A stretch of DNA of 64,000 bases from an uncultured bacterium (GTDB taxonomy: Bacteria; Methylomirabilota; Methylomirabilia; Rokubacteriales; DASRDR01), in contig CAYXBJ010000178.1 in NCBI GenBank assembly GCA_964463175.1, positions 52,431 to 116,430 of the forward strand, read 5' to 3'. Positions within the stretch are counted from its first letter, which is position 1, and the number at the start of each line of letters is the position of its first letter. Below the pieces are notes generated by a model, which made no database searches, had not been told where the DNA came from, and was given only the letters and a program-made list of their open reading frames with translations. The translations under genes and the position numbers were made by a program. Below are positions 20,281 through 36,502 of this stretch, one piece after another.

Positions 20281-21459
20281 CTACCGGCGCAGTCGCGCGA
20301 GCGTCTCTCGGATCGTGTCGATCACGTACTCGACCGACTCCGCCGGCATGTCCGGATAGATGGGCAGCGAGATGGCTCCCGCGAACTGCCGCTCGGCCGA
20401 CGGGAACATCCCCGGCTGGTACCCGAAGCTCCGCTGGTAGGCGGGGTGCAGGTTCAGCGGCATGAAGTGGACGCTTGTGCCGATCCCCCGCGCCGCGAGC
20501 TCCCGCATCACGTCGTCGCGCCCCTTCGACAGGGCGTCCAGGTTCAGGCTGAGGACGTACAGGTGCCATGCGTGCACGTCACCCGACGGCTCGCTCGGAA
20601 TGCGGCAGGTGTCCAGGCCGTGGAGGCCCTCGCTGTAGCGCAAGGCGATCTCCCGACGCTGTTTTTGGAAGGCCTCGGCCTTGCGGAGCTGATGGAGGCC
20701 GATGGCCGCCGCGATGTCCGACAGGTTGTACTTGAACCCGTGGTCCTCGACCTCGTAATACCAGTTCCCCCGGTCACCGTAGCGATTCCAGGCGTCGGCG
20801 TTCAGACCGAACAGGCGCATGCGGCGAATCCGATCGGCCAGGTCATCGCGGTTGGTGGTGACCATGCCGCCCTCGCCGGTCGTGATCGTCTTCGTCGCGT
20901 AGAAGCTGAACCCCGCCACGTCGCCGAGGGTCCCGACCATCCGGCCCCGATTGGTCGCGGGAAACGCGTGCGCCGCATCCTCGATGACCGCGATGCCGTG
21001 CTGGCGCGCGAGTGCCATGATCGGATCCATGTCGCAGGCCCGTCCGGCAAAGTGCACGACGATGATCGCCTTGGTCCGATCGGTCACGTGGGACGCGAGG
21101 GTTCCGGCATCCACGTTCGGGTTCTCGAGACTGGAGTCGGCCAGCACCGGGCGCGCGCCGAGGTGAATCGCCGTGGCGGCCGTCGCGGTGAAGGTGTAGG
21201 CCGGGACGATGACCTCGTCGCCAGCGCCGACACCGACCGCCTCGAGGCCCAAGTGCAGAGCGCCGGTGCACGAGCTCACCGCGATGGCATGCTGGGCGCC
21301 GGTGAATACGGCGAACTCGCGCTCGAACCGCCGGGCCCGGGGGCCGGTCGTTAGCCAGCCAGATCTCAAGGTGTCCACGACCTCTCCGATCTCCTCTTCG
21401 CCGATCGAAGGAACGTGGTAGGGAACCTTCTTGATGGGCCGCGGCTCAATGCTGTCCAT
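20281..21459 (-). CDS. DegT/DnrJ/EryC1/StrS-family PLP-dependent sugar aminotransferase
   Basis: ...FSFYATKTITTGEGGMV (PLP-Lys region), 392 aa. Confidence 0.85.
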   Translation of the reverse strand: MDSIEPRPIKKVPYHVPSIGEEEIGEVVDTLRSGWLTTGPRARRFEREFAVFTGAQHAIAVSSCTGALHLGLEAVGVGAGDEVIVPAYTFTATAATAIHLGARPVLADSSLENPNVDAGTLASHVTDRTKAIIVVHFAGRACDMDPIMALARQHGIAVIEDAAHAFPATNRGRMVGTLGDVAGFSFYATKTITTGEGGMVTTNRDDLADRIRRMRLFGLNADAWNRYGDRGNWYYEVEDHGFKYNLSDIAAAIGLHQLRKAEAFQKQRREIALRYSEGLHGLDTCRIPSEPSGDVHAWHLYVLSLNLDALSKGRDDVMRELAARGIGTSVHFMPLNLHPAYQRSFGYQPGMFPSAERQFAGAISLPIYPDMPAESVEYVIDTIRETLARLRR

Positions 21460-23191
21460 TTGTTCGCTCCGCGTTTTCGCTCGCCAGCGGTAATCTGATT
21501 TCCAGGAGCGCCCCTCCTTGCTCGCAGGACATCAGCGAGGTCGTGCCCCCGTGTGCATTGACCACACTCCGAACGACCGACAGGCCGAGCCCCAGGTGCG
21601 GCCGGCTCTTCGTCGACACCAGCGGCGCGAAGACATCGTCTCGCGCGGCAAGCCCCAGTCCGCTGTCCTGCACGGAAATCAAGGCATGTCCGTTCTCGCG
21701 AGCCGTCCGCACGCGGATCTCTCCGCCTTCCGGCATGGCCTCGACGGCGTTCTCGATCGCATGGGCGAGAGCGGCCACGAAGTCAGGCATGGTGCGAGCC
21801 AGCAGAGGCTCGCTCATCAGCTCGAGACTGAGCCGGACCGGCGCGCGGCTCAGGTCGGTTCCCGCCTCCAGGCTGGCCCGGGCCATACTCATGACTCGCC
21901 GAACCACCTTGTTGAGGTCGGCCTCCCCGGTCCCGCCGGAGGTCTCGGACTCGTCCCCGCGAAGCGCACCGAGCACCGAACTGACCTCGCGCGTCACGGC
22001 CCCGGCCAGCGTGCTTGCTTCCAGCGAGCTCATTGGGGTGGACCCGTTCTCCCTCGTCAGGAGCTCCTGGATCCGGACTGGGAGGAGCGCCTCCACGAGT
22101 CGGTCGATCCCCTTGAGCGCCTCGCGCAGGGCAACGCGCTGGCTGGACGACAGCGTCTCGTAGGCTGCACGCCCGACGCATGCCCGCTCGTGCACGTGGT
22201 CCTCCAGCGTCGAGACCATCGCCAGCGCGTGGGTCGCAATCTCGGCCCGGTGCCGGAACGCCTCCAGCTCCCAATCGCTGAGCTGTAGCTCGTCCTCCAC
22301 GTACAGGCAGATGAGCCCCAGCAGTCGCCCCGCGCTCATGAGCGGCAGGGTGATCCGGGTCCACCGCCCGCTGTCCGGTATCGCCGCCCACAGGGGGTCC
22401 AGCGGATCGTCCGCGACGCTCGCGACTCCGATCGGCCACTCGGACTGCGTCCGGCCCCGGGCCAGCGCCAGCATCATCTGGGCCGCGTCCACGGAGGTCA
22501 CCGGCTCGGGGAATCGGTAGCGCGCAGCGACCGCGATGTCCCCCGCCGGAGTCACACGGAACAGGAGACCGCGCACTGACATCCCGAGCCACCCGCTCGC
22601 CTCCGAGGCGCACATGGCCAGGACGTCTTCGATGGTCCGGGCGTCGAACGTCTCGCGCACCATCCGGAGGAGAGACGCCATGGCCCGGACCTGCTGGCGC
22701 AGCCGCCCCGCCTCCCAGGCCTGAGCGGAGCTGGCGATGAACTCGTCGAGGATCGCGCGGCATCGCTCGCGCTTCTCGGCGCTCAAGGGCTCCCGCGCTG
22801 CGGAACGCATCTCGCCCAGCCCCAGAACGCCGACCGTCTCGTCGCCGTGCCGGATGGGCAGGAGGTAGATGGCGCGCAGGTCCGGAACCATCGACTGGGC
22901 CGCCTCGTCCTGGATGGCGACCTGATCGGCCGCTTCGAGATCGACGAACACCTCTTCGTGGCCCTGGAACGCCGCCCGGTGCGAGGGCGCCGTCGCGAGC
23001 GCCACCCGCGACCACAACGGGAGCGGCACGTCGAGGGGTCGCGCCGTCCCGACCGCCTTGACCGTGAGGCAGAAGGTCGGACGGTCCCACAGGGCGACGC
23101 TGGCAATGGTGACCGGCAGGCTGTCGGCGAGCTTCTGGGCAAGCTGCTGAGCCGCGGTCTCGAGGCCGAGCATGGTTCCGTTTCCGTTCAT
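21446..23191 (-). CDS. Cytoplasmic GAF-domain sensor histidine kinase
   Basis: C-terminal HATPase_c (ENAVEAMPEGGEIRV...DSGLGL...GLGLSVV). Upstream GAF-like regions; no TM segments. Start taken at MNGNGTMLG; the first ~124 codons of the track ORF overlap the upstream gene. Confidence 0.65.
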   Translation of the reverse strand: MNGNGTMLGLETAAQQLAQKLADSLPVTIASVALWDRPTFCLTVKAVGTARPLDVPLPLWSRVALATAPSHRAAFQGHEEVFVDLEAADQVAIQDEAAQSMVPDLRAIYLLPIRHGDETVGVLGLGEMRSAAREPLSAEKRERCRAILDEFIASSAQAWEAGRLRQQVRAMASLLRMVRETFDARTIEDVLAMCASEASGWLGMSVRGLLFRVTPAGDIAVAARYRFPEPVTSVDAAQMMLALARGRTQSEWPIGVASVADDPLDPLWAAIPDSGRWTRITLPLMSAGRLLGLICLYVEDELQLSDWELEAFRHRAEIATHALAMVSTLEDHVHERACVGRAAYETLSSSQRVALREALKGIDRLVEALLPVRIQELLTRENGSTPMSSLEASTLAGAVTREVSSVLGALRGDESETSGGTGEADLNKVVRRVMSMARASLEAGTDLSRAPVRLSLELMSEPLLARTMPDFVAALAHAIENAVEAMPEGGEIRVRTARENGHALISVQDSGLGLAARDDVFAPLVSTKSRPHLGLGLSVVRSVVNAHGGTTSLMSCEQGGALLEIRLPLASENAERTNGQH

Positions 23192-23204
23192 CGGAGTTGG
23201 CCCG

Positions 23205-26123
23205 TCACGATCCCGTGCCGGCCCCGACGGTGGCCAGGCCACGCAGGGCCGCAGCGTTGTCGGGCTGGCGCCGGAGCACGGTGCGATACTGCTGGATCGC
23301 CCGGTCGGCAAGTCCCGCCCGCGCGTACAGGTCGCCGAGCTCCGCGCCAAGGTCGCCGTCCGCCGGGCGGAGCCGCTGCGCCACTTCGTAGCTCGCGATC
23401 GCTTCCCGCAGGTAGCCGGCGCCCCGAAGGGCCTGCGCCGCCGCCCGGTGGAGGCGCCAATCGTCGCCGCCGACCGCGGCCGCCGTCCGGTACTCCTGGA
23501 ACGCCTCGGCGGCCTGCCCCCGCTGCTCGAGCAGCCGGCCGAGCTCGAGATGGACCCAGCCATCGTTCGGCTTGTCGCGAAGGATCTGGCGCCACAGCGT
23601 CACCGCCCGCTCCCACTGGCCGCGCTGGACAAACAGGGCGGCGAGCTCTCCCTGGACACGGTGGCGCCGGCTGGCCGGGCCAGGACCGGACTCGGCCAGA
23701 GTCGCAGCGGTGGCGAGCGCGATGTCCGCCTCCATCCCCTGGTTCGTCTGGGCGTAAACCATGGCGAGGACGGCGAAGACCTCCGCCTCTCCCGGCGCCA
23801 GCACCAGAGTGCGGCGGGCCTGTTCGAGCGCGGCCAGCGGGTCTTTCCGATTGATCAGCACCCGCGCGTACGCGAGTCGCGCCTCCACCTCGGTGGCGGG
23901 CTCCTGCGCGAGCGCGATCGCCTGCTCGAACGCGGCGGTGGCGCCCTGCGTTCGCCCGCGGCGCTCCAGATACGATCCGAGCCCGAGGAGCAGGTCGAAC
24001 TTCTGCGGCACGGTCGCCAGGATGAGCTGGTCGTCCACCTGCCGGGCCAGCAAGTCCTCGACAACGCCGTCGAGGAAGCCGGGGTTCAAGGCCACGGCCC
24101 GGCCGAACGCCGCGCTCGCCACCTCGTAGCGGTCCGGTTGACCGACGGCATTCAGCGCGAACGACCCCATGCGCCGGTGTCGATTCGCGTTCTGGGGGTC
24201 CCAGCGGACGGCGTCCTGGAAGTGCGCCAGGGCTTCGGGGAACACGCTCCGCTCCGACCCGACGGTCCCCGCGAGCCGCGGGTCAATCGGGGTCTGGATC
24301 GGGCTCTTCTGGACGACCTGGCGAACATTCTCCAGGGTTCCGAGGAACCAGCCGAACCGCTCGTGCGTGTCGGCCGCCCGCGGCCGGAGCTGGAGGCTCG
24401 TCCGATACGCCTCGTACGCGTCCGCGAGCAGGGGCTGCGCCGCCTCGAACTTCGCTGCGACGGACAGGTCGGACAGGCGCGCGCCGCTCGCGGTGATCCC
24501 GAGCGTCCAGGCGCGGCGCCCGAGCTCGGCGGAGACGTCGGCGAAGTCCGACCAGGCGGCCGGGTTCGAGCGATCCCAGGCAACGGCCGTCCGGAGGCCG
24601 GCGCGCGCCCGGATCAGATCCCCCTGCGGCGTCCCATCCCTTCGCCAGACACTGGTCACCGTGGAGGCGGCACTCGCTCGTTGCCATCCGGCGACGCTCG
24701 GGGGCGCCAGCAGCACCGTGGCGGCGACCACCGCCACCAGGGCGACGAAGACACTCACCGTGCTCCATCCCGGATTCAGGCGCCAGCCCCACCGCTCCAG
24801 GCCAACACGCTCCCCTTCACCATCCCGGTGGAGGGTCGCCGCCAGCGGCAGCAGCCCGGCAATCAGCGCCAGCATCACCGCATTGCCTGGCATGTGGAGC
24901 CCGAAGTCCACGACACTGTGAACCGTGACCGCGACGATCGCGCCAGTGCCTCCCAGCAGGAGCCCGCGGACGAACGGATCGCGGCGACCGCGCCACGCCT
25001 GCACCAGGGATGTCAGCAGCGCCACCAGTGCCCATCCGGCGATCAGCAGGCCCACCACTCCCGTCTCGGCCAGCAGCTGCAGGAAGTCGTTGTGCGCGTA
25101 GTCCACGAACTTGTCGGCCGGAACCTCGACTGGTTGATAGGGCGCGAAGCCATCCCGGAACGCGCCGAGCCCGATCCCGGCGACCGGCGCATCACCGACG
25201 ACTCGCAGCGTCGTCGCCCAGATTCTCGAGCGCAGATCCGACGCGGGCTCCCGCAGCACCTCGGAGAATCGGTCGGTCACCGCCCCGAGTCCGACCCAGC
25301 CGGCGTAGGTGACAACGCCGAGCGCGAGCGCCAGGATGGCCAGCGTGACGTGGTTCCCGGATCGAGCCGTGCGCGCCATGGCGAGCATGGCCAGCACGCC
25401 GACCACGGTACTCACCACACCGCCGCGGGAGAGCGTGAGGGCGAGCGCGAGCGCCAGGACAAGCACGCCACCGACCAGGAACACTCGCACCGTCAGACCC
25501 TCGAGGGCCCCCGCGGGAGGCGCCGACTCGGACCGCCCCGCGTGTCCGCGGCGCGAATGGGCGGAGGGACGCAAGAGCAGTCCCAGGGCCATGAACAGGG
25601 CGATGGAGAAGTAGAGGGCCTGGTGGTTCGGGTTGACGAAGGTGCTCGTCAGGCGGCCCGACGGGCTGGCCGCGAGCCCGCTCCAACCGATCTTGAGCTG
25701 TCCAGCAAACCCCACCCCGGCCAGGACGACCGCCCAGCCAACCAGCGCGAGCGTCAGCCGGGTGAGGCGCGCGCGGGTCATCGGGAGGCCGGTGACCACG
25801 AGGAACAGACCGAAGTAGGCGAAGTAAAGCCGCGCGCTCTCCCAGGTTGCGTACCGGTTGATCGAGCCGCCGGGCGAGAAGACCTGCCAGCCGACGAGGA
25901 CGGCCATCGCCACCGCCGGTCCCAGCAGTGGAGTCCGGCGAATCTCGAGCTCTCCGGACACCGCCATCCGAACGATCCACAGGGCGAGCAGCAGCGCCAC
26001 GCCGCCCTCGATGCCCGCCTGGGCCCAGGGCACGACGGCACCGAGGGGCAGCGGCGCGAACATCAGGAGCGCCACCACTCCGACCTCGATGACGGCGTCG
26101 ATAACCCGGGCGAGTCCAGTCAC
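23205..26123 (-). CDS. O-antigen ligase/polymerase-family (Wzy_C domain) membrane protein fused to a long C-terminal TPR-repeat domain
   Basis: N-terminal ~430 aa polytopic with Wzy_C hallmarks (LALTLSRGG, YAHNDFLQLLAETGVVGL). C-terminal ~450 aa of TPR-like repeats (...AYARVLINRKDPLAALEQARRTLVLAPGEAE..., ...LGDLYARAGLADRAIQQYRTVLRRQPDNAAALRGLA). Confidence 0.75.
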   Translation of the reverse strand: MTGLARVIDAVIEVGVVALLMFAPLPLGAVVPWAQAGIEGGVALLLALWIVRMAVSGELEIRRTPLLGPAVAMAVLVGWQVFSPGGSINRYATWESARLYFAYFGLFLVVTGLPMTRARLTRLTLALVGWAVVLAGVGFAGQLKIGWSGLAASPSGRLTSTFVNPNHQALYFSIALFMALGLLLRPSAHSRRGHAGRSESAPPAGALEGLTVRVFLVGGVLVLALALALTLSRGGVVSTVVGVLAMLAMARTARSGNHVTLAILALALGVVTYAGWVGLGAVTDRFSEVLREPASDLRSRIWATTLRVVGDAPVAGIGLGAFRDGFAPYQPVEVPADKFVDYAHNDFLQLLAETGVVGLLIAGWALVALLTSLVQAWRGRRDPFVRGLLLGGTGAIVAVTVHSVVDFGLHMPGNAVMLALIAGLLPLAATLHRDGEGERVGLERWGWRLNPGWSTVSVFVALVAVVAATVLLAPPSVAGWQRASAASTVTSVWRRDGTPQGDLIRARAGLRTAVAWDRSNPAAWSDFADVSAELGRRAWTLGITASGARLSDLSVAAKFEAAQPLLADAYEAYRTSLQLRPRAADTHERFGWFLGTLENVRQVVQKSPIQTPIDPRLAGTVGSERSVFPEALAHFQDAVRWDPQNANRHRRMGSFALNAVGQPDRYEVASAAFGRAVALNPGFLDGVVEDLLARQVDDQLILATVPQKFDLLLGLGSYLERRGRTQGATAAFEQAIALAQEPATEVEARLAYARVLINRKDPLAALEQARRTLVLAPGEAEVFAVLAMVYAQTNQGMEADIALATAATLAESGPGPASRRHRVQGELAALFVQRGQWERAVTLWRQILRDKPNDGWVHLELGRLLEQRGQAAEAFQEYRTAAAVGGDDWRLHRAAAQALRGAGYLREAIASYEVAQRLRPADGDLGAELGDLYARAGLADRAIQQYRTVLRRQPDNAAALRGLATVGAGTGS

Positions 26124-26881
26124 TTGGAGCGTGCCTCTCCCGACGAGCGGCCCTTGACCGGGTCATAAGCGCTTCGCGTGTAATACCCGTCGTACGTGTC
26201 GTAGTACCGCTTGGAGTAGCCGTGCGCCGCGGCATCGAACCGGTTGAGCACGGCGCCGATGATCCGTCCCCTCACCGCCTCGATGCGCTCCTTTGCGCGC
26301 CGCAGCGCCACCTCTGGTGTCTGCCCGCTGTCCACGACCAGCAGCACGCCGTCGACGTGCGGCGCGAGCGCGCACGCATCGCTCGTTGCGAGCGCCGGCG
26401 GGGAATCGAGGATCACGACGTCGAAGCGCTCCGCCACCGTGTTCAGGAACTCGTGCATCCGTCGGGAGCCCAGGAGCTCGGCGGGGTTCGGAGGCGTCGG
26501 ACCACTCACCACCAGGGAGAGATTCGGGACGGCGCTCTTGAGGAGCACCGCGGCCAGGAGCGAGTCGCCGACGAGGTACGACGACAGCCCCGGCGTGGTG
26601 GGCTGCCGGAACAGACTGTGGACGCTGGGGCGCCGGAGGTCCGCCTCGACCAGGAGGACCGAGCGTTCCCCCTGCGCCATGCTGATCGCCAGATTGGCCG
26701 CGGTCGTCGACTTGCCCTCACCGGGGCCGGCGCTCGTCACCAGGATGCGCCGGAGCGGGACGTCGGGATTCGCGTAATGGAGGTTGTTCCGGAGCACCCG
26801 GAATGCCTCGGCGGCGAACGACTGAGGGTCATTCAGCGTCACGAGGCTCGAGGGCGAGGACGAGCTCTTCAACGGGGTCAT
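26120..26881 (-). CDS. Bacterial tyrosine autokinase, cytoplasmic subunit (CpsD/CapB-like BY-kinase)
   Basis: Walker A SAGPGEGKSTTAANLA, Walker A' VLLVEADLRRP, Walker B DVVILDSPP, C-terminal Tyr cluster YSKRYYDTYDGYYTRSAY. Confidence 0.85.
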   Translation of the reverse strand: MTPLKSSSSPSSLVTLNDPQSFAAEAFRVLRNNLHYANPDVPLRRILVTSAGPGEGKSTTAANLAISMAQGERSVLLVEADLRRPSVHSLFRQPTTPGLSSYLVGDSLLAAVLLKSAVPNLSLVVSGPTPPNPAELLGSRRMHEFLNTVAERFDVVILDSPPALATSDACALAPHVDGVLLVVDSGQTPEVALRRAKERIEAVRGRIIGAVLNRFDAAAHGYSKRYYDTYDGYYTRSAYDPVKGRSSGEARSK

Positions 26882-26895
26882 CTCCTCTCTCCGAC

Positions 26896-28254
26896 CTAGC
26901 TACGCGCTCGGGGGAGCATGGGAATCAGGGAGAACACGGGTACACCGAGCGCATGCTCCACCTGCTCGGGCGTGCGAACGCTGTCGTCCATGTATTCGAG
27001 GAAGAAGGCAGCGCCGAGGCCCACGATCAGCCCCATGAGCGCGCCGAGCGCCAGGTTCAGCGTCTTTCGCGGCTTGATGGGGGACGTGGGGACGATGGCC
27101 GCCTCCACGATCCGGATGTTGTTCGAGTCCAGACCCTGGCTGAGGCTCGTCTCCTTGAGGCGCTTCAGCAGCACGTCATACAGCTGCTGGTTCGAATCCG
27201 CCTCTCGCTTCAGGATCCCGTACTGGATCTCCTTCTTCCCGAGAGCCTGGGCCTCGTCGCGGTACTGGTTCACGGCCTGGAGCATCGCGTTCTCGCGCGC
27301 CTTGAGCGCGTTGTACTCGCTCTCCATGCTGAGCGAGAGCCGGCCCACCTCTTCGCGGATCTTCAGCTGGATCTCGTCGATCTGGGACTGGATCTTGACG
27401 ACCTCGGGGTGCTTCTCGCGGTATGTCTTGAGGAGCTTGGAGCGCTGAACCTCGAGCTCGACGAGCTGGCCCTTCAGCTTCTGGATCAACGGATTGTTGA
27501 TCACCATCGGCGAGGACTCCAGCAGCTCGGGCTGCGTCGAGGCGCGCTTGAGCTCGCCCAGGCGCGTCTCCATCTCGAGCCGCTTGGCCTTCGCCTCGAT
27601 GTACCCGCTGTTGAATTCGGCGAGCTTACGGACCCCCAGGCTTTGCTTCTCCTCGACCTGGACCAGCCCCGCCTGCTCGCGGTAACGCTGAAGCGCCAGC
27701 TCCGACTCGTTCACCTTGTTCTTGAGGTCGGAGACCTGCGCGGTGAGCCAGCTGAGGGCATCGCGCGCGGACGACAGCTTCAGCTCGAGATTCTGATGGA
27801 CGTACGTGGTCGCCAGGGTATTGGCGATCTCCGCCGCGAGCTTGGGGTCCTCGTCCTCGACACGGATCTCGATCAGGCGCGTGTTCCGGATCGGCTCGAC
27901 CGAGATCGCGCCGAGGAACGACGACGCCGGATCGGCCGCCAGGGCCAGCCCCGGCTTCTTCGTCTTGAGCTCGAGGGTATCGATCACCCGCTCGGCCACG
28001 GGCCGGCTCTTGACGATCTGGACCTGCGTCTCGAAGAACTCCGTGGATTCGGGCGCGATGCCCGCGGCGTCCTGGAAGTTCACCACCCGCGGCCCCTCAC
28101 GCTCGAGGAGCGCCTTGGTCGCCGCCCGGTAGACCGGACGCTGGAGATAGGTGCCGAGAGCCACCGTCGCGACGATCACGACGAAGCACGCGACGACCAG
28201 CCAGGCGTGCTTCCGCAGCACACGGATGTACTCACGCAGATGGACCTGTTCCAT
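26896..28254 (-). CDS. Polysaccharide co-polymerase (Wzz/GumC/CpsC-like PCP-2b, transmembrane subunit without kinase domain)
   Basis: N-terminal TM (LVVACFVVIVATVALGTYL), long coiled-coil periplasmic domain, C-terminal TM (LNLALGALMGLIVGLGAAFFL). Start may be the upstream M (28290). Confidence 0.8.
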   Translation of the reverse strand: MEQVHLREYIRVLRKHAWLVVACFVVIVATVALGTYLQRPVYRAATKALLEREGPRVVNFQDAAGIAPESTEFFETQVQIVKSRPVAERVIDTLELKTKKPGLALAADPASSFLGAISVEPIRNTRLIEIRVEDEDPKLAAEIANTLATTYVHQNLELKLSSARDALSWLTAQVSDLKNKVNESELALQRYREQAGLVQVEEKQSLGVRKLAEFNSGYIEAKAKRLEMETRLGELKRASTQPELLESSPMVINNPLIQKLKGQLVELEVQRSKLLKTYREKHPEVVKIQSQIDEIQLKIREEVGRLSLSMESEYNALKARENAMLQAVNQYRDEAQALGKKEIQYGILKREADSNQQLYDVLLKRLKETSLSQGLDSNNIRIVEAAIVPTSPIKPRKTLNLALGALMGLIVGLGAAFFLEYMDDSVRTPEQVEHALGVPVFSLIPMLPRARS

Positions 28255-28304
28255 GAAACCCTCACTCGACACGGTGTGTCCCGGCGGCATTGCGGCCCCC
28301 TAGC

Positions 28305-29450
28305 CTAGAAGTAGCTCTCCGGCACGACGACCACGTCGTTGGCCGTGAGCGGAATGTCCCTGTCCTTGCGGCCCCGCTTGATGACCTCGTTGAGATCCAC
28401 GACGATCGTTTCCTGGCGACCGTCGCGATAAGTCCGGATGATCTTCGTCCGGTTCGGGGCAGCCTTGTCGGTGAAGCCTCCCGCGAGCGCGACGCCCTCG
28501 ATGGCGGTCCCCGCCTGCTCGAGCTGGTAGGCGCCGGGCTTCTTCACCTCGCCCATGACGTAGAAGGTGTTCCCGGCCGGCACGAGGACCGTGTCCCCCT
28601 CCGCCAGCAGAAAGTCGCGGGCGCGTGGGTCGGCGCCGCTCAGATCGATCGGGATCGTCTCCTGGCTGCCGTCCGGCTGCTTCCTGAGCACCTTGGAGAC
28701 CGACGAGGCGGCCCGCTCCGAGAAGCCGCCGGCCAGCGTGATGGCCTCGAGTGCCGAGGTCTCCTTCTCCAGCACGAAGGCGCCGGGCTTCTTCACCTCG
28801 CCCATGACGTAGAAGCTCGTCTGCTTCGCGATGTAGACGGTGTCACCGTTCTCGAGGGGAAGGTTCTCCGAGCTGTCGCCGTCGAGGAGCTTCCGGAGAC
28901 TCACGCGAATCGTCGTGCTACCCGCCGCGCCCGGAGTCACGGGACCATCGGCCTTCGGGAGGCGAACGACCACCGCCTGGCGGCCCGCGAACTTGCTGGG
29001 GCCCCCCGCCTGGGACAGCACGTCCAGCAGCGTCGAGCGCCCGGTGAGGAAGTAGGTGCCGGGCTTGTCGGCCTCGCCCAGGACGAAGACCCGTTGCGAC
29101 CGGTACTCCTGGACCGACACGGTCACCTGGGGATCGACGAGGTAGTCCTTCCCGAGCTGCTGCTGGAGGCGGGTCTCCAACTCGGTCGGGGTCAGGCCTC
29201 CCGCCGCCACGTCTCCGATCAGAGGAAAGGGCATGCGTCCGTCCCCCGCAATGACCGACGTGCGGGCGAGGTCCTCATGTCCGTAGACCGTGATCTTCAG
29301 AATGTCCCCGGGTCCGATCCGGTAGTCCTGGCCCTTGGGGCTGGAGGCCTGAGCGCGTGCGGCGCCCGCCCCGAGTAGGAGCAGACCCAAGGCCAGCAGG
29401 AGGAGGCCGTAGAGGGGGAGCCTCGATCGGTGGGCGAGCTTCATCATCAT
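28305..29450 (-). CDS. Outer-membrane polysaccharide export protein (OPX/Wza family), short form with two SLBB-type repeats; no C-terminal OM helix
   Basis: Signal peptide. Poly_export-like N-domain (DYRIGPGDILKITVYGHEDL), two GDT..FYVMGEVKKPGAY repeats. Ends ...VVVPESYF. Confidence 0.85.
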   Translation of the reverse strand: MMMKLAHRSRLPLYGLLLLALGLLLLGAGAARAQASSPKGQDYRIGPGDILKITVYGHEDLARTSVIAGDGRMPFPLIGDVAAGGLTPTELETRLQQQLGKDYLVDPQVTVSVQEYRSQRVFVLGEADKPGTYFLTGRSTLLDVLSQAGGPSKFAGRQAVVVRLPKADGPVTPGAAGSTTIRVSLRKLLDGDSSENLPLENGDTVYIAKQTSFYVMGEVKKPGAFVLEKETSALEAITLAGGFSERAASSVSKVLRKQPDGSQETIPIDLSGADPRARDFLLAEGDTVLVPAGNTFYVMGEVKKPGAYQLEQAGTAIEGVALAGGFTDKAAPNRTKIIRTYRDGRQETIVVDLNEVIKRGRKDRDIPLTANDVVVVPESYF

Positions 29451-29590
29451 CTGGAGTTGTTCCTATGCTTTCAGACGCCGGCAGGAGCAGCCGTCCGAGG
29501 TCGCGATAAGGCAGAAGTCCCTGTTGGGCACGATTTAGGTACTACGAGCAACTCTCGTGCCTAGAGTCAGGGAGGAGCAGGCGGGCTAGG

Positions 29591-31222
29591 CTAGAAGTAG
29601 CTCTCCGGGACGACGACGACGTCGTTGGCGGCCAGCGGTAAGTCCTTGTCTTTCCTACCGCGCTTGATCACCTCGTTGAGGTCCACGACGAATGTCTCCT
29701 GGCGGCCATCAGGCAGCGTACGGATCACTTTGGTGCGATTTGGCGCTGCCTTGTCCGTGAATCCGCCCGCCATGGCGATCGCTTGGATCGCGGTCGTGGT
29801 CTGATCAAGCTGATAGGCTCCTGGCTTCTTCACTTCGCCCATCACGTAGAAGGTGTTCCCGACGGGCACCAGGAGAATATCTCCATCCTTGAGGAGGAAT
29901 TCCCTTGCCTTTGGATCCGCCCCGGAGAGATCCAGGATATGGATCTCCTCCGTCCCGGAGGCAAGTCGGCGCGTGAGCTTCACCTGGGTATGGAGGGCCT
30001 TCTCGGTGAACCCCCCGGCGAGCGTCAGCGCCCCCACCGCCGTCGTGGCCGGATCGAGCGGGTAAGCGCCCGGCTTCCGCACCTCACCCAGGACGTAGAA
30101 CGCGTTGCCGGACGGGACCAGGAGCGTGTCGCCGTCGCGGAGTGGATAGTCGCGGCCGGCACGATCCGACCCCGAGAGGTCCAGGACGACGGTCTGCTCC
30201 TCCCCGGAGGCTCCCCGGCGAATCAGCTTGACCTGGCTCTGACCCGCCTTCTCGGTGAACCCCCCGGCGATCGTCACCGCCCCGAAGGCGGTCGTCGACT
30301 TCTCGAGGGGATAGGCTCCGGGCTTCCGCACCTCGCCCGACACGAAGAACGTGTTGCCGCGCGGGATGAGCAGGGTGTCACCCTCGGCGATTTGCACGTC
30401 CCGGGCGCGCGGATCAGCCAGGTCGACATCGAGGCTCTCCTGACTGCCGTCCGCCCGCTTTCGCAGGATCTTGGCCCCGCTCGGCGCGGCCCGATCGGTG
30501 AAGCCGCCGGCGAGCGTCACCGCCTCGAGGGCGTTCGTCTCCTTGTCCATTGCGTAGGCGCCCTGGCGCAGAACCTCCCCCAGGACGAAGAACGAGGTCA
30601 GCTTCGGGACATAGACGGTGTCGCCGTTCTGGAGGAGGATGTTCTCGCCCGGCACGCCATCCAGCAGGCGTTTGAGATCGGCGCGGAACGCGACGCTGCC
30701 CGCCGCGCCCGGGGTCACAGGGCCATCGGACTGAGCCCCGCGAACGACCACGACTTGGCGCCCGGCGTTCTTGCCAGGCCCTCCGGCCTGGGACAGGACG
30801 TCTAGCAGCATTGTCTGGCCGGTCAGCGCGTAGGTCCCGGCCTTGTCCACCTCGCCCAGCACGAAGACGCGCTGGGAACGATACTCCGCCACGGTGACGG
30901 AGACCTGCGGGTTGACGAGATAGTCCTTCCCGAGGAGGTCCCGGAGGAGCGTCTCGATAGCACCCGGCGTGAGGCCGCCCACGCGAACATCGCCGATCAG
31001 CGGGAACTGGAACGAGCCGTCCCCCGAGACGACGACCTGCTTTGTCAGGTCGTCGTGCCCCCAGACGGTGATCTTCAGGACGTCCTTCGCCCCGACCTTG
31101 TACTCCGTCGGACCGCCGCTACCCGCAGCCTGGGCGGCAGCGGGACCCGCGGGAACGAGCAGGAGGGCAACGAGTAGGAGGGCGGTCATGGCCGCCGGAA
31201 ACCATCGCACACTTACACCCAT
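29591..31222 (-). CDS. OPX/Wza-family export protein, long paralog with four SLBB-type repeats; no C-terminal OM helix
   Basis: Signal peptide (MTALLLVALLLVPAGPAAAQA). EYKVGAKDVLKITVWGHDDL, then four GDT..(F/Y)V.GEV(R/K)KPGAY repeats. The last ~90 aa are near-identical to the short paralog. Start set at MGVSVRW (31220-31222); the track ORF's upstream 160 codons are not credible. Confidence 0.8.
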   Translation of the reverse strand: MGVSVRWFPAAMTALLLVALLLVPAGPAAAQAAGSGGPTEYKVGAKDVLKITVWGHDDLTKQVVVSGDGSFQFPLIGDVRVGGLTPGAIETLLRDLLGKDYLVNPQVSVTVAEYRSQRVFVLGEVDKAGTYALTGQTMLLDVLSQAGGPGKNAGRQVVVVRGAQSDGPVTPGAAGSVAFRADLKRLLDGVPGENILLQNGDTVYVPKLTSFFVLGEVLRQGAYAMDKETNALEAVTLAGGFTDRAAPSGAKILRKRADGSQESLDVDLADPRARDVQIAEGDTLLIPRGNTFFVSGEVRKPGAYPLEKSTTAFGAVTIAGGFTEKAGQSQVKLIRRGASGEEQTVVLDLSGSDRAGRDYPLRDGDTLLVPSGNAFYVLGEVRKPGAYPLDPATTAVGALTLAGGFTEKALHTQVKLTRRLASGTEEIHILDLSGADPKAREFLLKDGDILLVPVGNTFYVMGEVKKPGAYQLDQTTTAIQAIAMAGGFTDKAAPNRTKVIRTLPDGRQETFVVDLNEVIKRGRKDKDLPLAANDVVVVPESYF

Positions 31223-31269
31223 GGCGTGACCCTGGACAGCGCGAAACACCGGCAGACGTCGTGCGCGGC

Positions 31270-32463
31270 TCAGTAGGTCAGTATCACGCTCGCCTTGATG
31301 CGGTTGTCCGTGTAGCTGAACTCGTTGAAGTTCGAGTTCAGGTCCAGGTAGTTGTAGCCGATCTCGAACGCCAGCCACTTCTTCATCTGGTACTTGAGGC
31401 TCACCCCGGCCTCGAAGAACACGTCCTCGCGCTGGGCGGTCTTCGTCCCGACGGTGCTGTCCTCCGGATAGTCGTTGACGCCGCCGAGCCCTCTCACCCG
31501 GAGGACCAGCCGCTCGCTGAGGAAGTGCCGGACTTCGACACCAGCGTAGTTCGAGACGTAGTAGAGCTGTCCCTCGAACGTCGACTCGACGTTCGCTCGG
31601 CCACCGAAGACCCGGACCTCCGACGGCTCGCGGTACTTCCAGATGATGTTCCCCTCGACGATCAAGCCGTCCCAGTCCTTCACCAGCGGATTGTCGTAAT
31701 TCTTCCACTCCCAGCCCGCCTTGACGAGAAGCGTCGTCTTCGCGGTGACATCGCCCTTGAGACCGAGCCAGAACCGCCAGCCCTCGGAGTCGCGGACGGC
31801 GGCGGACGCGGCGTCATCGTAGCGAACCACCACGTAGTCGAGCTCGCCAAGGACCGACGTCTTCGGCAAGAAGCGATAGAAGAACGTTCCGGTCCCGGTG
31901 TAGTCTTGGCGGTTGAGATTCTCTTCGGGGGCATCGTAGTCGACGAGGAACCAGCGGAAGTTCGCGTCGAACGAATAGCGCTCCCGGAGGGTGTAGTTCG
32001 CTCCGGCGTCGAGCGTGTTCTCGGTCCGCTCGACAAGCTGCGTCAGCTCCGGCACCGGGAACCCGGCGAAGTCGTCGGTGATGATGAACCGATCGCTGAG
32101 CCGCAGCGAAAGATTCCAGGGAAAGTTGTACTGCCCATCGACCAGGGCGTTGTGGTGGACGGTGTTGAGATCGGTGTTGTCGGTGTACTCGAGGATGTCG
32201 GCGCGGTAGCCGATGCGCGCGGTGTAGTGGTTGCCCGGAAGCTCGATGAGGATACCCGGGCTGATGACCCAGATGAAATCCTGGATCTTGTCGGTGTTTG
32301 TGAGCAGGATGTTGTCGTCGTACTCGCCCGACAGCTCGAGCGACGTGAGTATCCGGAAGGGGCCGAGCTGGATGTTACCCTGGGCAGCCGCGGGCCCCGC
32401 CAGCCCCATGATCAGCAGCAGGGCGATTCCAACCGAGATCCCCGCAGCGCGCCCTCTCAACAT
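31270..32463 (-). CDS. Predicted outer-membrane beta-barrel protein (candidate OM partner of the helix-less OPX proteins)
   Basis: Signal peptide MLRGRAAGISVGIALLLIMGLAGPAAAQG. Alternating hydrophobic/aromatic beta-strand pattern throughout; aromatic C-terminus ...IKASVILTY. GC ~53-55%. Confidence 0.55.
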   Translation of the reverse strand: MLRGRAAGISVGIALLLIMGLAGPAAAQGNIQLGPFRILTSLELSGEYDDNILLTNTDKIQDFIWVISPGILIELPGNHYTARIGYRADILEYTDNTDLNTVHHNALVDGQYNFPWNLSLRLSDRFIITDDFAGFPVPELTQLVERTENTLDAGANYTLRERYSFDANFRWFLVDYDAPEENLNRQDYTGTGTFFYRFLPKTSVLGELDYVVVRYDDAASAAVRDSEGWRFWLGLKGDVTAKTTLLVKAGWEWKNYDNPLVKDWDGLIVEGNIIWKYREPSEVRVFGGRANVESTFEGQLYYVSNYAGVEVRHFLSERLVLRVRGLGGVNDYPEDSTVGTKTAQREDVFFEAGVSLKYQMKKWLAFEIGYNYLDLNSNFNEFSYTDNRIKASVILTY

Positions 32464-32559
32464 ACCCCTCCCGGTGACAAAGCAGCGCCACCGTCGGGCA
32501 ACAGACCCGGTACGGTGGCGGCGCTGGTTAGGTTCGCTCTGAACGACCTGGCCGACGGC

Positions 32560-33132
32560 CTACTCGTTCCCGGTCGGGCTCGTCTGCTGCGAGATCCACC
32601 CCGGCAGGTTCGTCTGGAAATTCTCGGGCGGCAGGCCCCCGTAGGTCTCCACGAACTTGAGGATGGTGAACGTCCCCAGGGTCTGGAGGAACGGCACCGA
32701 CCCGCCCGACTGCGCGATCGGACCCGTCCCCGACATGCGGATGGTGATGTTGCCCGGATCGTCCCCGAGGGTGCGACCGACGATCTCGGCCTTGTTGGGC
32801 TCCACCACGATCACCCGGCCATTCGGCAAGAGGATCTCGACGCGTCCCTCGCTGCTCTCCACGAGGATGAGGTTCTTGGCCGAGGTGACCACTCGCGCCT
32901 CGCCGACGAGCGTCTTGACGACCAGCTTGCTCGCGTCCGGCTGGAAGGAGGTCTCGGCCGACGCGCCCTGTCCCAGCACCAACTCGAGACCGCCGAAGGA
33001 GGTCTTGCTAGGTCCGTTGATGATGCGCTTCTCGTCTTCCGCGGCCCAGGTGGCCGTGGCAGCAACCACGATCAGTGCGGCGAGCAATGCCGACAATGCC
33101 CTACGCGTCATATTCCCCTTCCCCCAATCCTC
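32560..33132 (-). CDS. Small secreted protein of unknown function (first gene downstream of the sigma-54 promoter)
   Basis: ATG 33130-33132 is preceded by GGGGAAGGGGAAT (strong Shine-Dalgarno). Signal peptide MTRRALSALLAALIVVAATATWA|AEDE. ~190 aa, no known motif. Confidence 0.6.
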   Translation of the reverse strand, partial: EDWGKGNMTRRALSALLAALIVVAATATWAAEDEKRIINGPSKTSFGGLELVLGQGASAETSFQPDASKLVVKTLVGEARVVTSAKNLILVESSEGRVEILLPNGRVIVVEPNKAEIVGRTLGDDPGNITIRMSGTGPIAQSGGSVPFLQTLGTFTILKFVETYGGLPPENFQTNLPGWISQQTSPTGNE

Positions 33133-33191
33133 GGGCCCATCAGGCCCGGCAGGTACAAGAACTCTATTCAAGGAAACGCGGCAACGATACA

Positions 33192-33207
33192 GCAAGGTGA
33201 GTGCCAA
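33192..33207 (-). promoter_or_regulatory. Sigma-54 (RpoN) -24/-12 promoter directing transcription toward 33132 and the downstream OM/OPX genes
   Basis: Minus-strand sequence TTGGCACTCACCTTGCT matches TGGCAC-N5-TTGC exactly (GG and GC elements, correct spacing). It lies about 60 nt upstream of ATG 33132. Confidence 0.6.
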
Positions 33208-33302
33208 TGGCAAGAGGCTCGACGATTGCCTTGGATGGCGGCCCTCTCGAAGCAAGGAACCGGCTGAAGGGGCCGCCAGTTCCAGGTCAGTTCTCTTGCG
33301 GC

Positions 33303-33313
33303 CTTCCGGGAAG
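33303..33313. promoter_or_regulatory. Inverted repeat CTTCC-G-GGAAG, candidate enhancer-binding-protein site (UAS) about 110 bp upstream of the sigma-54 promoter
   Basis: Perfect 5-bp arms with a 1-bp spacer, in the divergent intergenic region 33133-33400. Confidence 0.3.
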
Positions 33314-33334
33314 ATCAGTGCCCGTGAAATTGCC

Positions 33335-33364
33335 TTGACAGTCCCCCGGTCTGCTCCGGATAGT
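33335..33364 (+). promoter_or_regulatory. Possible sigma-70-type promoter for the NtrC-like gene
   Basis: TTGACA (33335-33340), 17-18 nt spacer, GGATAGT. Lies 37 nt upstream of ATG 33401. Confidence 0.25.
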
Positions 33365-33400
33365 GGAGAGCAGGAGAAATTCCGTAGACTTTTTCCCCTA

Positions 33401-34831
33401 ATGGACCAACCGGTCGTTCTCATAATCCACGAAGACGCGGCTGTCCGGGCCCTGCTCGGGCGGATGCTGCCCTCCTTCGGGTACACGGTCCGGACCGTGA
33501 CATCCGGGGAAGAGGCTATCGACCAGCTCACCCAGGGGGATGTCACCGTCGCCCTCCTGGACCTGGACCTCCCCGGCATGTCGGGCGCCGACACCCTCCG
33601 CGCGATCCGGGCCATGTCCCCTGCTCCCGAAGTCGTGGTCACGTCCGCCCGGGGGACCGTGACGGCTGCCGCGGATGTCGCTCGCCACGGCGCCTTCGAC
33701 TTCGTCCCGCAGCCCTTCGACCTAAAGGACTTGAACCACGTCCTCCGCACGGCCCACGACCAGGCCGTCCGGCGACGCCAGGCGCTCCACCTCGAGGCCG
33801 CGCTCAAGGCCCACGACCCGTTCCCCGAGATCGTCGGCCGGAGCACGGGGATCAAGCGAGTGCTCGCTCTCGTCAACAAAGCCGCGCGGACGCTCTCCCC
33901 CGTCCTCATCCAGGGCGAGAGCGGCACGGGCAAGGAGCTGGTGGCCCGGGCGCTGCACGCCAACAGCCCTCGCGCGAACGCGCCCCTCACAATCGTCGAT
34001 TGCGGCGCCCTCCAGGACACCCTCCTCGAGAGCGAGCTCTTCGGTCACGAGCGCGGTGCGTTCACCGGTGCCCACGGGCTCAAGCACGGGCTCTTCGAGA
34101 CCGCCAACCAGGGCACTCTCTTCCTGGACGAAATAGGCGAGATGAGCCCGGCGACCCAGGTGAAGGTCCTGCGCGCGCTCCAGTCCGGGGAGTTCCGGCG
34201 GATCGGCTCGAACCGCCACATCAAGGCCGATATCCGGGTGATCGCCGCGACGAACAAGGAACTGAAGGACGAAGTCCAGCGCGGCCGCTTCCGGGAAGAT
34301 CTCTACTACCGGATCGCGGTCATCGAGATCTACATGCCCGCGCTCCGGGAGCGGACGGATGACATCCCGCTCTTGGTCGAGCACTTCCTGCGGATCAACG
34401 CCTACGGCGGGCGGGAGCGCCTGCACGTCACGCCGGACGCCATGACGAGCCTGGCGCGGTATGCGTGGCCGGGCAACATCCGCGAGCTGCGGAATGTCAT
34501 CGAGCGGCTGTCGGTCCTCGCGGACAGCCAGGTGCTCACGGTCGACGCCCTGCCGCCGGCCATCGTGAAGGCGTCCCAGGAGCCCACCGAGTCGGCGGGG
34601 CTCCCCCGGCCGGCGGACGCCGGCCGGACCGACGGCGGGGGCGACATGACGCTCGACGATGTGGAGCGGCACCACATCATGCGGACCCTCGAGCGCCACC
34701 GCTGGAACAAGAAGCGGGTCGCGGGCATCCTTGGCATCGACACCAAGACGCTGTACAACAAGCTGCGCCGCTACGGGGTCCCCATCGGCTCACGTGGTGA
34801 CGGCGATGCGGCCGCCAGTTCCTCTGCCTAG
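33401..34831 (+). CDS. Sigma-54-dependent transcriptional activator (NtrC/Fis family; receiver + AAA+ + HTH)
   Basis: Receiver domain (ALLDLDLPGMSG). AAA+ with Walker A GESGTGKELVARALH and GAFTGA motif (ERGAFTGA), ...DIRVIAATN. C-terminal Fis-type HTH (RWNKKRVAGILGIDTKTLYNKLRRYG). Confidence 0.85.
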   Translation: MDQPVVLIIHEDAAVRALLGRMLPSFGYTVRTVTSGEEAIDQLTQGDVTVALLDLDLPGMSGADTLRAIRAMSPAPEVVVTSARGTVTAAADVARHGAFDFVPQPFDLKDLNHVLRTAHDQAVRRRQALHLEAALKAHDPFPEIVGRSTGIKRVLALVNKAARTLSPVLIQGESGTGKELVARALHANSPRANAPLTIVDCGALQDTLLESELFGHERGAFTGAHGLKHGLFETANQGTLFLDEIGEMSPATQVKVLRALQSGEFRRIGSNRHIKADIRVIAATNKELKDEVQRGRFREDLYYRIAVIEIYMPALRERTDDIPLLVEHFLRINAYGGRERLHVTPDAMTSLARYAWPGNIRELRNVIERLSVLADSQVLTVDALPPAIVKASQEPTESAGLPRPADAGRTDGGGDMTLDDVERHHIMRTLERHRWNKKRVAGILGIDTKTLYNKLRRYGVPIGSRGDGDAAASSSA

Positions 34832-34852
34832 ACCAGGAGCCTGGAGACAACC

Positions 34853-35287
34853 ATGAGCGATGATGCGGCGAGCCGTCCGCCCCGGACGGCCGCAACAGAG
34901 GAACGCGAGCGCATCCTCGTCTGCGACGACGATCCGCGCGTGAGGGAAACGATCGTCGAGGCCATGGCCGTCGAGTCGCTGGACGTGGACACCGCAGACC
35001 GCGCCGTGGACGCGATCCAGCGGATCATGCACACGAGCTACCGGGCGCTGATCCTGGACCTGAAGCTCCCCGGTCTGGGCGGGCTCGACGCCATCGCCGT
35101 CGTGAAACGGTTCGACGAGGCGCTGCCGATCATCGTGATGACGGGCCACGCCTCCTACCAGGTGGAGCAGGCGGCCCGGGCGGCCGGGATCTTTTACTAC
35201 CTCGTCAAGCCGTTCAACCTCGACGAGCTGCTGGCCGCGGTCCGCGCCGCGGTCCGGTTCCGGGAGGGTAGTCGGCGGCGCAGCTGA
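34853..35287 (+). CDS. Single-domain response regulator (CheY-like receiver)
   Basis: VCDDD, LILDLKLPGLGG, IVMTGHAS, YLVKPF; 144 aa, no output domain. Confidence 0.8.
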   Translation: MSDDAASRPPRTAATEERERILVCDDDPRVRETIVEAMAVESLDVDTADRAVDAIQRIMHTSYRALILDLKLPGLGGLDAIAVVKRFDEALPIIVMTGHASYQVEQAARAAGIFYYLVKPFNLDELLAAVRAAVRFREGSRRRS

Positions 35288-35308
35288 CGCCGGGGCGAGC
35301 CCGAGGGC

Positions 35309-35653
35309 TCAGGCCTCGGCGAGCAGTCCCCGCACCACTTCGGTCAGGCGGTCGCGGAGCTCCGGATCATCCGGCTCGTAGACATCGAGGATTCCCAGCA
35401 CCCGGACCTTGGGTGCGTGCGCGGGCCAGTGCTTCCGGATGTAAGCCTCGTGTTCCGGTTCCATGACGCAGACCACGTTCGCCCACGCGAGATCCCGTGA
35501 CGTGAGCGGGCGGCCGCCGGGGTCGGGATCGACGCCGGCCGAGCGCGCTTCGTGCTCGCCGCGTCTCGCGACGCTCCAGCTGAGCACCTGAAAGATCTGC
35601 TCACCGACCCGGCTCCGGCAGACATTGCCTCGGCAGACGAACAGGACCCGCAT
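35309..35653 (-). CDS. Low-molecular-weight protein-tyrosine phosphatase (Wzb-like, LMW-PTP/ArsC fold)
   Basis: P-loop VCRGNVCRS (CX5R), DVYEPDD (D-P-Y-like general-acid region); 114 aa. Confidence 0.7.
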   Translation of the reverse strand: MRVLFVCRGNVCRSRVGEQIFQVLSWSVARRGEHEARSAGVDPDPGGRPLTSRDLAWANVVCVMEPEHEAYIRKHWPAHAPKVRVLGILDVYEPDDPELRDRLTEVVRGLLAEA

Positions 35654-35803
35654 GAGTCGAAGGATACCATCGGGGAGCGCCGGCTCTCTTCCGCGGCTCC
35701 GTCATGACGGACCGGGCGGCAGCAGCGGGCACGATCTCCTTGCCCGCGAGCACTTCCGGCGCCAGCGGCTCGGGCCGATCACGGCGGCGGCCCGCGGGCA
35801 ACG

Positions 35804-36502
35804 TCACGCTCGGCCCCCCTCGCCGAGCTGACCGTCGCTCAACGCCAGGACGCGGTCGGCGGCGCGGGCGAGCTCCGCGCTGTGCGTGACCAGCACCACC
35901 GCCGATCGGCCGCTGCGCGCCCGGGCCCGGAGCTCGGCGAGCAGGATGGCGGCGTTCTCCGGGTCCAGGTTCCCGGTGGGCTCGTCCGCCAGGATGACCG
36001 CCGGATCGTTGAGCACGGCGCGACAGAACGCGACCCGCTGCTGCTCCCCGCCGGAGAGCGCCGGCGGGTACTGCTCCGCCCGCTCCGACATGCCCAGTCT
36101 CTGGAGAAGGCTGAGCGCCTCCGTCTCGGCGGCCGCCCGCGCCCGCCCGACGTAGCGGGCAGCGAGGAGCACGTTCTCGCGCGCGGTCATCTCCGGGATG
36201 AGGTTGTACGTCTGGAACACGAAGCCCAGGTGCCGGCCGCGAAAGCCAGCCAATGCTCGACGGCTCGCGCCGGTCAGGCGCTCGTCGCCGAACCAGAGCT
36301 CGCCCCCGTCGCTCCGGTCGAGGCACCCCAGGAGGTTCAGGAGCGTGGACTTCCCCGACCCCGAGCGTCCGACGACGGCCAGAAGCTCCCCGCGGGTCAG
36401 GGCGAGGTCCACCCCGCGGAGCACCTCGAGCACGCGGCCGTCCGGGGTCCGGAAGCGTTTGGTCAGGCCGATTGCCCGGAGGAGCGGAGCGCCGGAGCCC
36501 AC
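35804..36502 (-). CDS. ABC transporter ATP-binding protein (LolD/MacB-NBD/FtsE-like)
   Basis: GRSGSGKSTLLN Walker A, LSGGEQQRVAFCRAV signature, ILADEPTGNLD Walker B. GTG start just downstream of the permease stop. The 5' 145 codons of the track ORF are an out-of-frame read of the permease gene. Confidence 0.8.
   Translation of the reverse strand: MGSGAPLLRAIGLTKRFRTPDGRVLEVLRGVDLALTRGELLAVVGRSGSGKSTLLNLLGCLDRSDGGELWFGDERLTGASRRALAGFRGRHLGFVFQTYNLIPEMTARENVLLAARYVGRARAAAETEALSLLQRLGMSERAEQYPPALSGGEQQRVAFCRAVLNDPAVILADEPTGNLDPENAAILLAELRARARSGRSAVVLVTHSAELARAADRVLALSDGQLGEGGRA

Follow-up and report, generated by a model that had tools for sequence, protein, structure and literature searches.

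How is the exopolysaccharide (EPS) cluster of an uncultured member of the Rokubacteriales switched on? The question is raised by a stretch of 64,000 nucleotides (contig CAYXBJ010000178.1 of assembly GCA_964463175.1, positions 52,431 to 116,430; hereafter the window, numbered from its first letter; G+C content about 69%), in which an intergenic region separates an EPS cluster on the minus strand from a divergent gene encoding an NtrC-type enhancer-binding protein (EBP). An earlier annotation made without database searches (the sequence-only reading) had placed a sigma-54 promoter of the -24/-12 type in this region. We find that this motif, P1, and a second one inside the cluster, P2, are conserved among related loci, that the divergent gene remains linked to P1, and that its product carries the domains of a sigma-54 activator. 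These observations suggest that P1 is very probably a working sigma-54 promoter, paired with P2 and with a dedicated activator.

The exact motif TGGCAC-N5-TTGC, reported by the sequence-only reading on the minus strand at 33192-33207, is present at that place (33192-33206) and is the single match in the window when both strands are considered (mean of 0.05 in shuffled sequences, with at least one match in 4 of 100 shuffles). When one mismatch was tolerated, 3 matches were obtained versus 2.7 expected, and the loose pattern by itself is therefore uninformative. The search with an RpoN weight matrix that had been proposed was run as a consensus-weighted scan, using approximate weights derived from the published consensus and 30 shuffles as a control. 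P1 (33191-33207, minus strand, TTGGCACTCACCTTGCT) ranked first in the window with 19.3 bits and was followed by P2 (29547-29563, minus strand, TAGGCACGAGAGTTGCT) with 18.3 bits, the next site reaching 11.3 bits. Only P1 and P2 exceeded all shuffles, the best of which scored 16.5 bits. Both are intergenic, upstream of genes and on the coding strand of the cluster. Of the 12 positions specified in the consensus TGGCACG-N4-TTGCW, the P1 sequence agrees with 11, the exception being a T instead of a G at -20, and its GG (33205-33204) and GC (33193-33192) dinucleotides are exactly 10 nt apart, as the sigma-54 class requires. Transcription from P1 is predicted to start at about 33180.

In order to evaluate the conservation of P1, 25 related loci from Rokubacteria metagenome-assembled genomes and metagenomes were fetched together with a more distant one, L030. 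L029, a relative on a long contig, was left out of the counts: at 3700-4100 its activator gene carries frameshifts and 2 nt are inserted within the TTGC of the motif, anomalies that sequencing or assembly errors could explain. Every one of the 22 Rokubacteria loci having upstream sequence shows the invariant TGGCA and TTGCT, and the gap between them is fixed at 6 nt; the spacer positions are merely 45-77% conserved and the flanks are displaced by indels. Since the mean column identity of the whole intergenic alignment is 60%, the invariant P1 footprint is informative. L030, whose activator and first-gene product are 73% and 48% identical to those of the window, retains CTGGCACCGGGATTGCTC, with the same core as the Rokubacteria loci, at a distance of about 85 nt upstream of its first-gene ATG. 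The distance from the inferred P1 start to the ATG of the first gene is 65-75 nt in all 21 loci and 69 nt in the window. Selection on a two-part protein-binding site should leave such a footprint, which matches sigma-54 specifically. A chance match is ruled out by the shuffles together with the conservation across loci.

The -24 box is also included in an inverted repeat, TGCCA-A-TGGCA (33202-33212), an overlap correctly described by the sequence-only reading, though such repeats are no more frequent than chance predicts. Most loci retain the repeat as TGCC(A)-N0-4-(T)GGCA, which could be an indication that TGGCA...TTGCT and the repeat together form the operator of a dimeric regulator of a sigma-70-type system, the likeness to a -24/-12 element being coincidental. 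This explanation appears extremely improbable. The spacer of the repeat varies from 0 to 4 nt, unlike that of an operator, and the spacing of TGGCA to TTGCT never varies. Moreover, the independent P2 shares the GG-N10-GC core and lacks the repeat, and an activator with a GAFTGA motif is encoded next door.

P1 had first been assigned to an ATG at 33132. The in-frame codon at this position is GAG, and the conserved start of the first gene (32560-33111, minus strand) is the ATG at 33111, which opens a signal peptide (MTRRAL...) and has GGGGGAAGGGGA just before it. Because the gene starts there, the intergenic region is 289 bp long (33112-33400) and not 268 bp as previously stated. The product is a secreted protein of 183 aa whose function is unassigned. 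It consists of a signal peptide, a conserved beta jelly-roll core of about 110 aa and a variable tail, and a fold search returned generic jelly-roll and cupin matches alone. Among its 121 homologues none bears a name, and the 6 genome matches are all from Candidatus Rokubacteria metagenome-assembled genomes.

The predicted 5' untranslated region of the P1 transcript (33112-33180, minus strand) is about 69 nt long and contains the ribosome-binding region and, directly 5' of it, a potential stem CGGGCC/GGCCCG (33132-33148, minus strand). The stem sequence is kept in 22 loci with a variable loop, and no compensatory changes were seen among them. As the leader folds no better than its shuffles (z = -0.33) and the stem shows no compensatory changes, a structured 5' untranslated region is not supported; the conserved stem sequence may act as DNA or as RNA. 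No known RNA family was recognised in the leaders or the intergenic gaps either, an Rfam search over 28000-36000 giving no match at E <= 1. The leader also contains an out-of-frame ATG at 33140, which opens a frame of 10 codons (33108-33140, minus strand, MGPRIGGRGI) whose stop overlaps the real ATG at 33111; this frame is found in the window alone and is absent from the relatives.

P2 is located between the stop of OPX1 (29591) and the start of OPX2 (29450), two genes encoding polysaccharide export proteins. Its motif GGCACG-N4-TTGC (29548-29561) occurs once, and at the same place, in 10 of the 10 loci that cover this gap, with variable flanks. Inspection of these 10 loci by eye revealed no common -10-like hexamer downstream of it. 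The predicted transcription start is at about 29536. A putative second sigma-54 promoter at this position strengthens the case for a switch operated by RpoN and an EBP.

A GC-rich stem-loop (32482-32524, minus strand), followed by the T-enriched tail TTTGTC (32476-32481), was detected between the first gene and the gene for an outer-membrane beta-barrel. It is found in nearly all loci and its inner part was flagged by a terminator scan. In an alignment of 17 loci, 95.7% of the cells are paired and compensatory changes affect 4 of 11 pairs. Double-change cells number 14 versus 6.3 +/- 1.8 in shuffles, none of 500 reaching 14, and when the 3' partners were slid by 1-3 columns as a control, 29-77% of the cells were paired. 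The tails (TTTGTC, TTCTTG and TTTTC among the loci) are T-enriched and lack a clean U-run. The barrel ATG follows the base of the stem after only about 18 nt, and the barrel and OPX1 genes would therefore be transcribed by read-through from upstream. The stem-loop may act as a leaky terminator or as a transcript-stabilising hairpin that raises the first product over the export proteins. The single outer-membrane export operon of the sequence-only reading thus needs correction, as P2 precedes the genes for OPX2, the co-polymerase and the tyrosine kinase and a covarying stem-loop follows the first gene.

The gene divergent from P1 (33401-34831, plus strand) encodes an EBP with a receiver domain, an AAA+ domain and a helix-turn-helix (HTH) domain. 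Response_reg (PF00072), Sigma54_activat (PF00158), AAA_lid_14 (PF25601) and HTH_8 (PF02954) were detected in this order, all above cut-off. The translation contains HERGAFTGAHG and the Walker A motif GESGTGKE. The earlier assignment of a sigma-54 EBP gene with an intact GAFTGA to the opposite strand therefore holds, and the domain order, GAFTGA loop and Walker A motif are those of a group I EBP. In full-length alignments, the closest solved relatives are NtrC4 of Aquifex (PDB 4l4u), NtrC1 and ZraR. Exact copies of the protein exist on JGI metagenome contigs. In every locus with sufficient upstream sequence, L030 included, the activator gene is divergent from P1. Its HTH region RWNKKRVAGILGIDTKTLYNKLRRYG is invariant in intact Rokubacteria orthologues, with one conservative V-to-A change in L020, and a conserved binding site is therefore expected. 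The gene itself is preceded by a sigma-70-type promoter, TTGACA-18-GATAGT (33335-33364, plus strand, 10/12 match), of which TTGACAG is invariant in the intergenic alignment and the GGATAGTGG stretch largely so.

Where would this activator bind? The sole upstream element that is conserved universally is Block A (33373-33396, GGAGAAATTCCGTAGACTTTTTCC), an imperfect dyad GGAGAAA-N10-TTTTTCC in the leader of the activator gene. It lies at about -193 to -216 from P1, downstream of the conserved sigma-70 promoter of the activator gene and just upstream of its ATG. Block A is near-invariant in 20 loci, is recognisable in a related form in L030 and is more conserved than the flanking codons; both the block and its dyad pattern occur once in the whole window. 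The intergenic region of L020 is short, and Block A is located there at about 113 nt from the -24 box, on its upstream side. No Shine-Dalgarno sequence was found close to the activator ATG. From its position and conservation, we propose Block A as the best candidate for both the main enhancer and an autoregulatory site.

The sequence-only reading had favored another upstream activating sequence, the palindrome CTTCC-G-GGAAG at 33303-33313. The palindrome does exist, but the role given to it does not survive. The intergenic region contains 2 perfect repeats with 5-nt arms versus a shuffle mean of 1.14, 31% of the shuffles having at least 2, and just 5 of 20 Rokubacteria loci contain CTTCC...GGAAG or TTCC-N-GGAA, their spacers ranging from 1 to 9. 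This chance-level count and limited occurrence, set against the invariant HTH region, rule it out as the main site. More generally, GGAA/TTCC tetramers are enriched in the intergenic region (9 versus 2.1 expected, a count reached by none of 2000 shuffles) and, outside Block A, in 18 relatives (48 versus 18 expected, none being found in L018 and L020). Such GGAA-type sites, possibly including the palindrome, could serve as accessory sites for the activator. One of them, block b (33256-33283, minus strand, -76 to -103 from P1), has the form GGAACTG...TTCAG...GGTTCC (GGAAC-N18-GTTCC) and is partly conserved: it is recognised in most loci, lacks a clear counterpart in L018 and L019, and finds no room in L020. 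Block b may be an accessory activator site or an IHF-like site.

Together, these data lead us to a mechanism that we regard as likely in its entirety. Sigma-54 RNA polymerase would occupy the -24 GG and the -12 GC of P1 and wait there as a closed complex. The EBP, produced from the sigma-70 promoter at 33335-33364, would bind upstream DNA and open P1 by ATP hydrolysis via its GAFTGA loop, transcription starting at about 33180. Its likeliest site would be the Block A dyad in its own leader, with the GGAA-type sites at 33256-33283 as accessories. Because Block A is downstream of the activator's own promoter, its occupancy would also be expected to repress synthesis of the activator. The first product of P1 would be the small secreted jelly-roll protein, and the conserved stem-loop would probably let part of the transcripts pass into the barrel and OPX1 genes. 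P2 would drive OPX2, the co-polymerase and the tyrosine kinase, and its transcripts probably extend to the biosynthesis genes farther on, among them that of a GAF-domain histidine kinase. We infer the dependence on sigma-54, the action of the neighbouring activator, its place of binding, its autoregulation, the attenuation by the stem-loop and a sensor partner.

Several observations weigh against this mechanism. In the receiver domain of the activator, the acidic pocket is kept, E11, D12, D54 and T81/S82 are present and the conserved Lys is replaced by Gln (Q103, FVPQPF), as in all orthologues including that of the distant L030, which makes control of the activator by phosphorylation uncertain. 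The protein reaches the cut-off of none of the named NCBIfam equivalogs (AtoC, the best, 420 versus 714; NtrC 393 versus 558.6; PrsR 322 versus 502.6). No rpoN gene was found among the open reading frames scanned in the 64-kb window. Alternatively, Block A could act as RNA within the activator leader, in the form of a GGAGAAA/UUUUUCC hairpin, and a search of the window revealed no copy of it near P2. All relatives belong to one phylum; the 23 sequences are thus not independent and the counts overstate their independence. Finally, a weak sigma-70-like hexamer pair, TTGCCA-18-TATCGT (33184-33213, minus strand), overlaps P1 with a start within a few bases of the sigma-54 start. As the two starts are nearly identical, a start mapped near 33180 cannot separate sigma-70 from sigma-54.

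Some of these observations would fit a sigma-54 promoter that is fired, at P1 or at P2, by an EBP encoded elsewhere in the genome, the neighbouring activator regulating something else. A shared P1/P2 enhancer motif was in fact ruled out, Block A being unique and TTTCTCC-like strings occurring upstream of P2 in some loci alone. The receiver domain of the neighbour is atypical, and genomes rich in sigma-54 activators are common (PMC3162934). Against this, the activator gene stays divergently linked to P1 throughout the loci, the distant L030 among them, a near-invariant element is found within the shared intergenic region, and the divergent arrangement is the usual one for cognate pairs. We therefore consider an activator encoded elsewhere to be quite unlikely, and the neighbouring EBP remains the preferred candidate.

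The overlapping hexamers raise another possibility, that of a composite P1 at which sigma-70 would give basal expression from TTGCCA-18-TATCGT and a parked sigma-54 holoenzyme would block it until the activator fires. The pair matches 9 of 12 consensus positions, TTGCC and TATCGT are fairly conserved in Rokubacteria, and in L010 and L020 both hexamers are shifted relative to the -24/-12 element and keep their mutual spacing of 17 nt. This joint shift, however, is probably a single evolutionary event, the pair passes the same criteria in just 8 of 23 loci, and a -10-like hexamer is absent from L030. In addition, the invariant bases are those of sigma-54 and fall inside the would-be sigma-70 spacer. 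A composite promoter thus seems unlikely, if somewhat less so than an activator encoded elsewhere. The conservation of P1, the divergent EBP and P2 favor the RpoN/EBP switch put forward by the sequence-only reading; its wording that this switch acts rather than a sigma-70 promoter was too absolute.

The genes to be controlled extend on the minus strand from 33111 to about 2300 and form a Wzx/Wzy-type EPS cluster of roughly 30 kb. The downstream genes announced by the sequence-only reading were all recovered. The small secreted protein is followed by the outer-membrane beta-barrel BBP2_2 (31270-32463; PF10082, E = 3e-36), which also gives weak sub-cut-off matches to PEP-CTERM-associated outer-membrane proteins. 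OPX1 (29591-31189; 532 aa in public gene calls) has Poly_export and five SLBB domains and matches TIGR03028 EpsE with 285.9 versus a cut-off of 262.65; OPX2 (28305-29450), with three SLBB domains, matches TIGR03027 with 191.2 versus 180. They are followed by a polysaccharide co-polymerase with Wzz/GNVR domains (26896-28290), a tyrosine autokinase or BY-kinase (26120-26881; TIGR01007, 167.9 versus a cut-off of 108) and, from the domain search, a Wzy_C polymerase/ligase-like domain fused to TPR repeats (23205-26123). The GAF-domain histidine kinase comes next (21446-23563; HATPase_c and GAF_2 domains). This kinase, whose true start is probably downstream of 23563, could be the sensor that partners the activator. 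An aminotransferase and a priming transferase then precede the remaining biosynthesis genes, which encode glycosyltransferases, a flippase, a deacetylase and sugar-nucleotide enzymes. The two OPX proteins, the co-polymerase, the tyrosine kinase, Wzy_C, the flippase and the priming transferase are the components of a Wzx/Wzy-dependent pathway, with matches to Polysacc_synt, Bac_transf and TIGR03025 (361.9 versus a cut-off of 295.55). On the other side of the intergenic region, the activator gene is directly followed by that of a single-domain response regulator (34853-35287, plus strand), which is canonical and has an LVKPF motif. A low-molecular-weight phosphotyrosine phosphatase, Wzb-like (35309-35653, minus strand; PF01451), is encoded next to it; such phosphatases are the usual partners of BY-kinases. 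Beside these regulators, on the minus strand between 35600 and 42700, a MacB/FtsX-type ABC exporter and three ketoacyl-synthase genes may constitute a unit for lipids or polyketides that is connected with the envelope locus. Farther on, the 44-57 kb stretch encodes acyl-CoA ligases and two ABC uptake systems of the branched-chain amino-acid type.

Divergent arrangements of an EBP gene and its target, with autoregulation, are known from pspF-pspA, norR-norVW and xylR-xylS. As in these systems, a sigma-70 promoter of the activator and a sigma-54 promoter of the target share one intergenic region of about 300 bp and face away from each other, and a conserved candidate site, Block A, is found downstream of the activator's promoter, so that binding would activate the target and repress the activator. 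Block A differs in being a predicted site, which could act at the RNA level.

Control of polysaccharide loci by sigma-54 also has precedents. In Vibrio fischeri, the response-regulator EBP SypG and sigma-54 activate all four operons of the syp locus (PMC10162802). Like syp, the present locus is devoted to polysaccharide biosynthesis and export, encodes its own activator with the same three domains and has several internal sigma-54 promoters, here two. It differs in belonging to another phylum, in the score of its activator on the LuxO/SypG-like model (330 bits versus a cut-off of 800), in the divergent position of the activator gene at the edge of the cluster, and in its first gene, which encodes a small secreted protein and is followed by a stem-loop; these traits are known here from the DNA alone. 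In Myxococcus xanthus, the NtrC-like regulator EpsI/Nla24, encoded in a Wzx/Wzy-type EPS locus, is needed for EPS synthesis (PMC4877007, PMC7484181). The likeness is that of an NtrC-like regulator encoded within an EPS locus; the Myxococcus regulator binds cyclic di-GMP. The BerB/RpoN cascade of Burkholderia represents the same mode of control (PMC5552954).

In the PEP-CTERM system with PrsK, PrsR and PrsT, sigma-54 sites were described about 70 nt upstream of genes for small secreted proteins (Haft et al. 2006, PMC1569441). Here too an NtrC-type activator is encoded near EPS genes that resemble EpsE/EpsF/EpsG and PEP-CTERM-associated families, and a secreted-protein gene stands behind a long intergenic region. 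The models, however, all score below cut-off (PrsR 322 versus 502.6, PrsK 57 versus 300, PrsT 70 versus 312). Exosortase models gave no match to the open reading frames of the window scanned with NCBIfam, and no PEP-CTERM protein was found among them. The C-terminal region of the first-gene product is variable and has no conserved sorting motif, and on reading the P1 upstream region we saw no TTTACA, the 3' end of PEP-CTERM 'motif 1'. Membership of the PrsR/PEP-CTERM system was ruled out on the basis of the three sub-cut-off scores and the lack of an exosortase among the scanned frames.

A comparative study had already tied sigma-54 to EPS and to the cell exterior (PMC3162934), and our search of the literature found nothing on sigma-54 or on this locus in Rokubacteria. 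The general picture is unchanged, since sigma-54 and locus-encoded activators are already known for polysaccharide and cell-surface loci in several phyla; the novelty here is a further case of a known type of control, in an uncultured phylum. A bolder proposal, to which we give little credence, is that P1, its half-repeat -24 box, the sigma-70 overlap and Block A form a compact bistable switch with the jelly-roll protein as abundant output. If so, the parked sigma-54 holoenzyme would silence basal transcription, binding of the activator would trigger P1 and at once switch off the activator's own gene, and the P2 unit, which would encode the sensor kinase, would provide feedback. The leaky terminator would set the level of the first product apart from that of the export machinery, and this product would be a matrix protein not described before, produced abundantly and specific to Rokubacteria.

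The Rokubacteria, known from metagenomes alone, are abundant in soil. For them, the locus provides a testable map of how EPS production may be switched on, with two putative sigma-54 promoters, a dedicated activator, a candidate enhancer and a stem-loop behind the first gene. The apparent first product of this switch is a conserved secreted protein that represents a new family.

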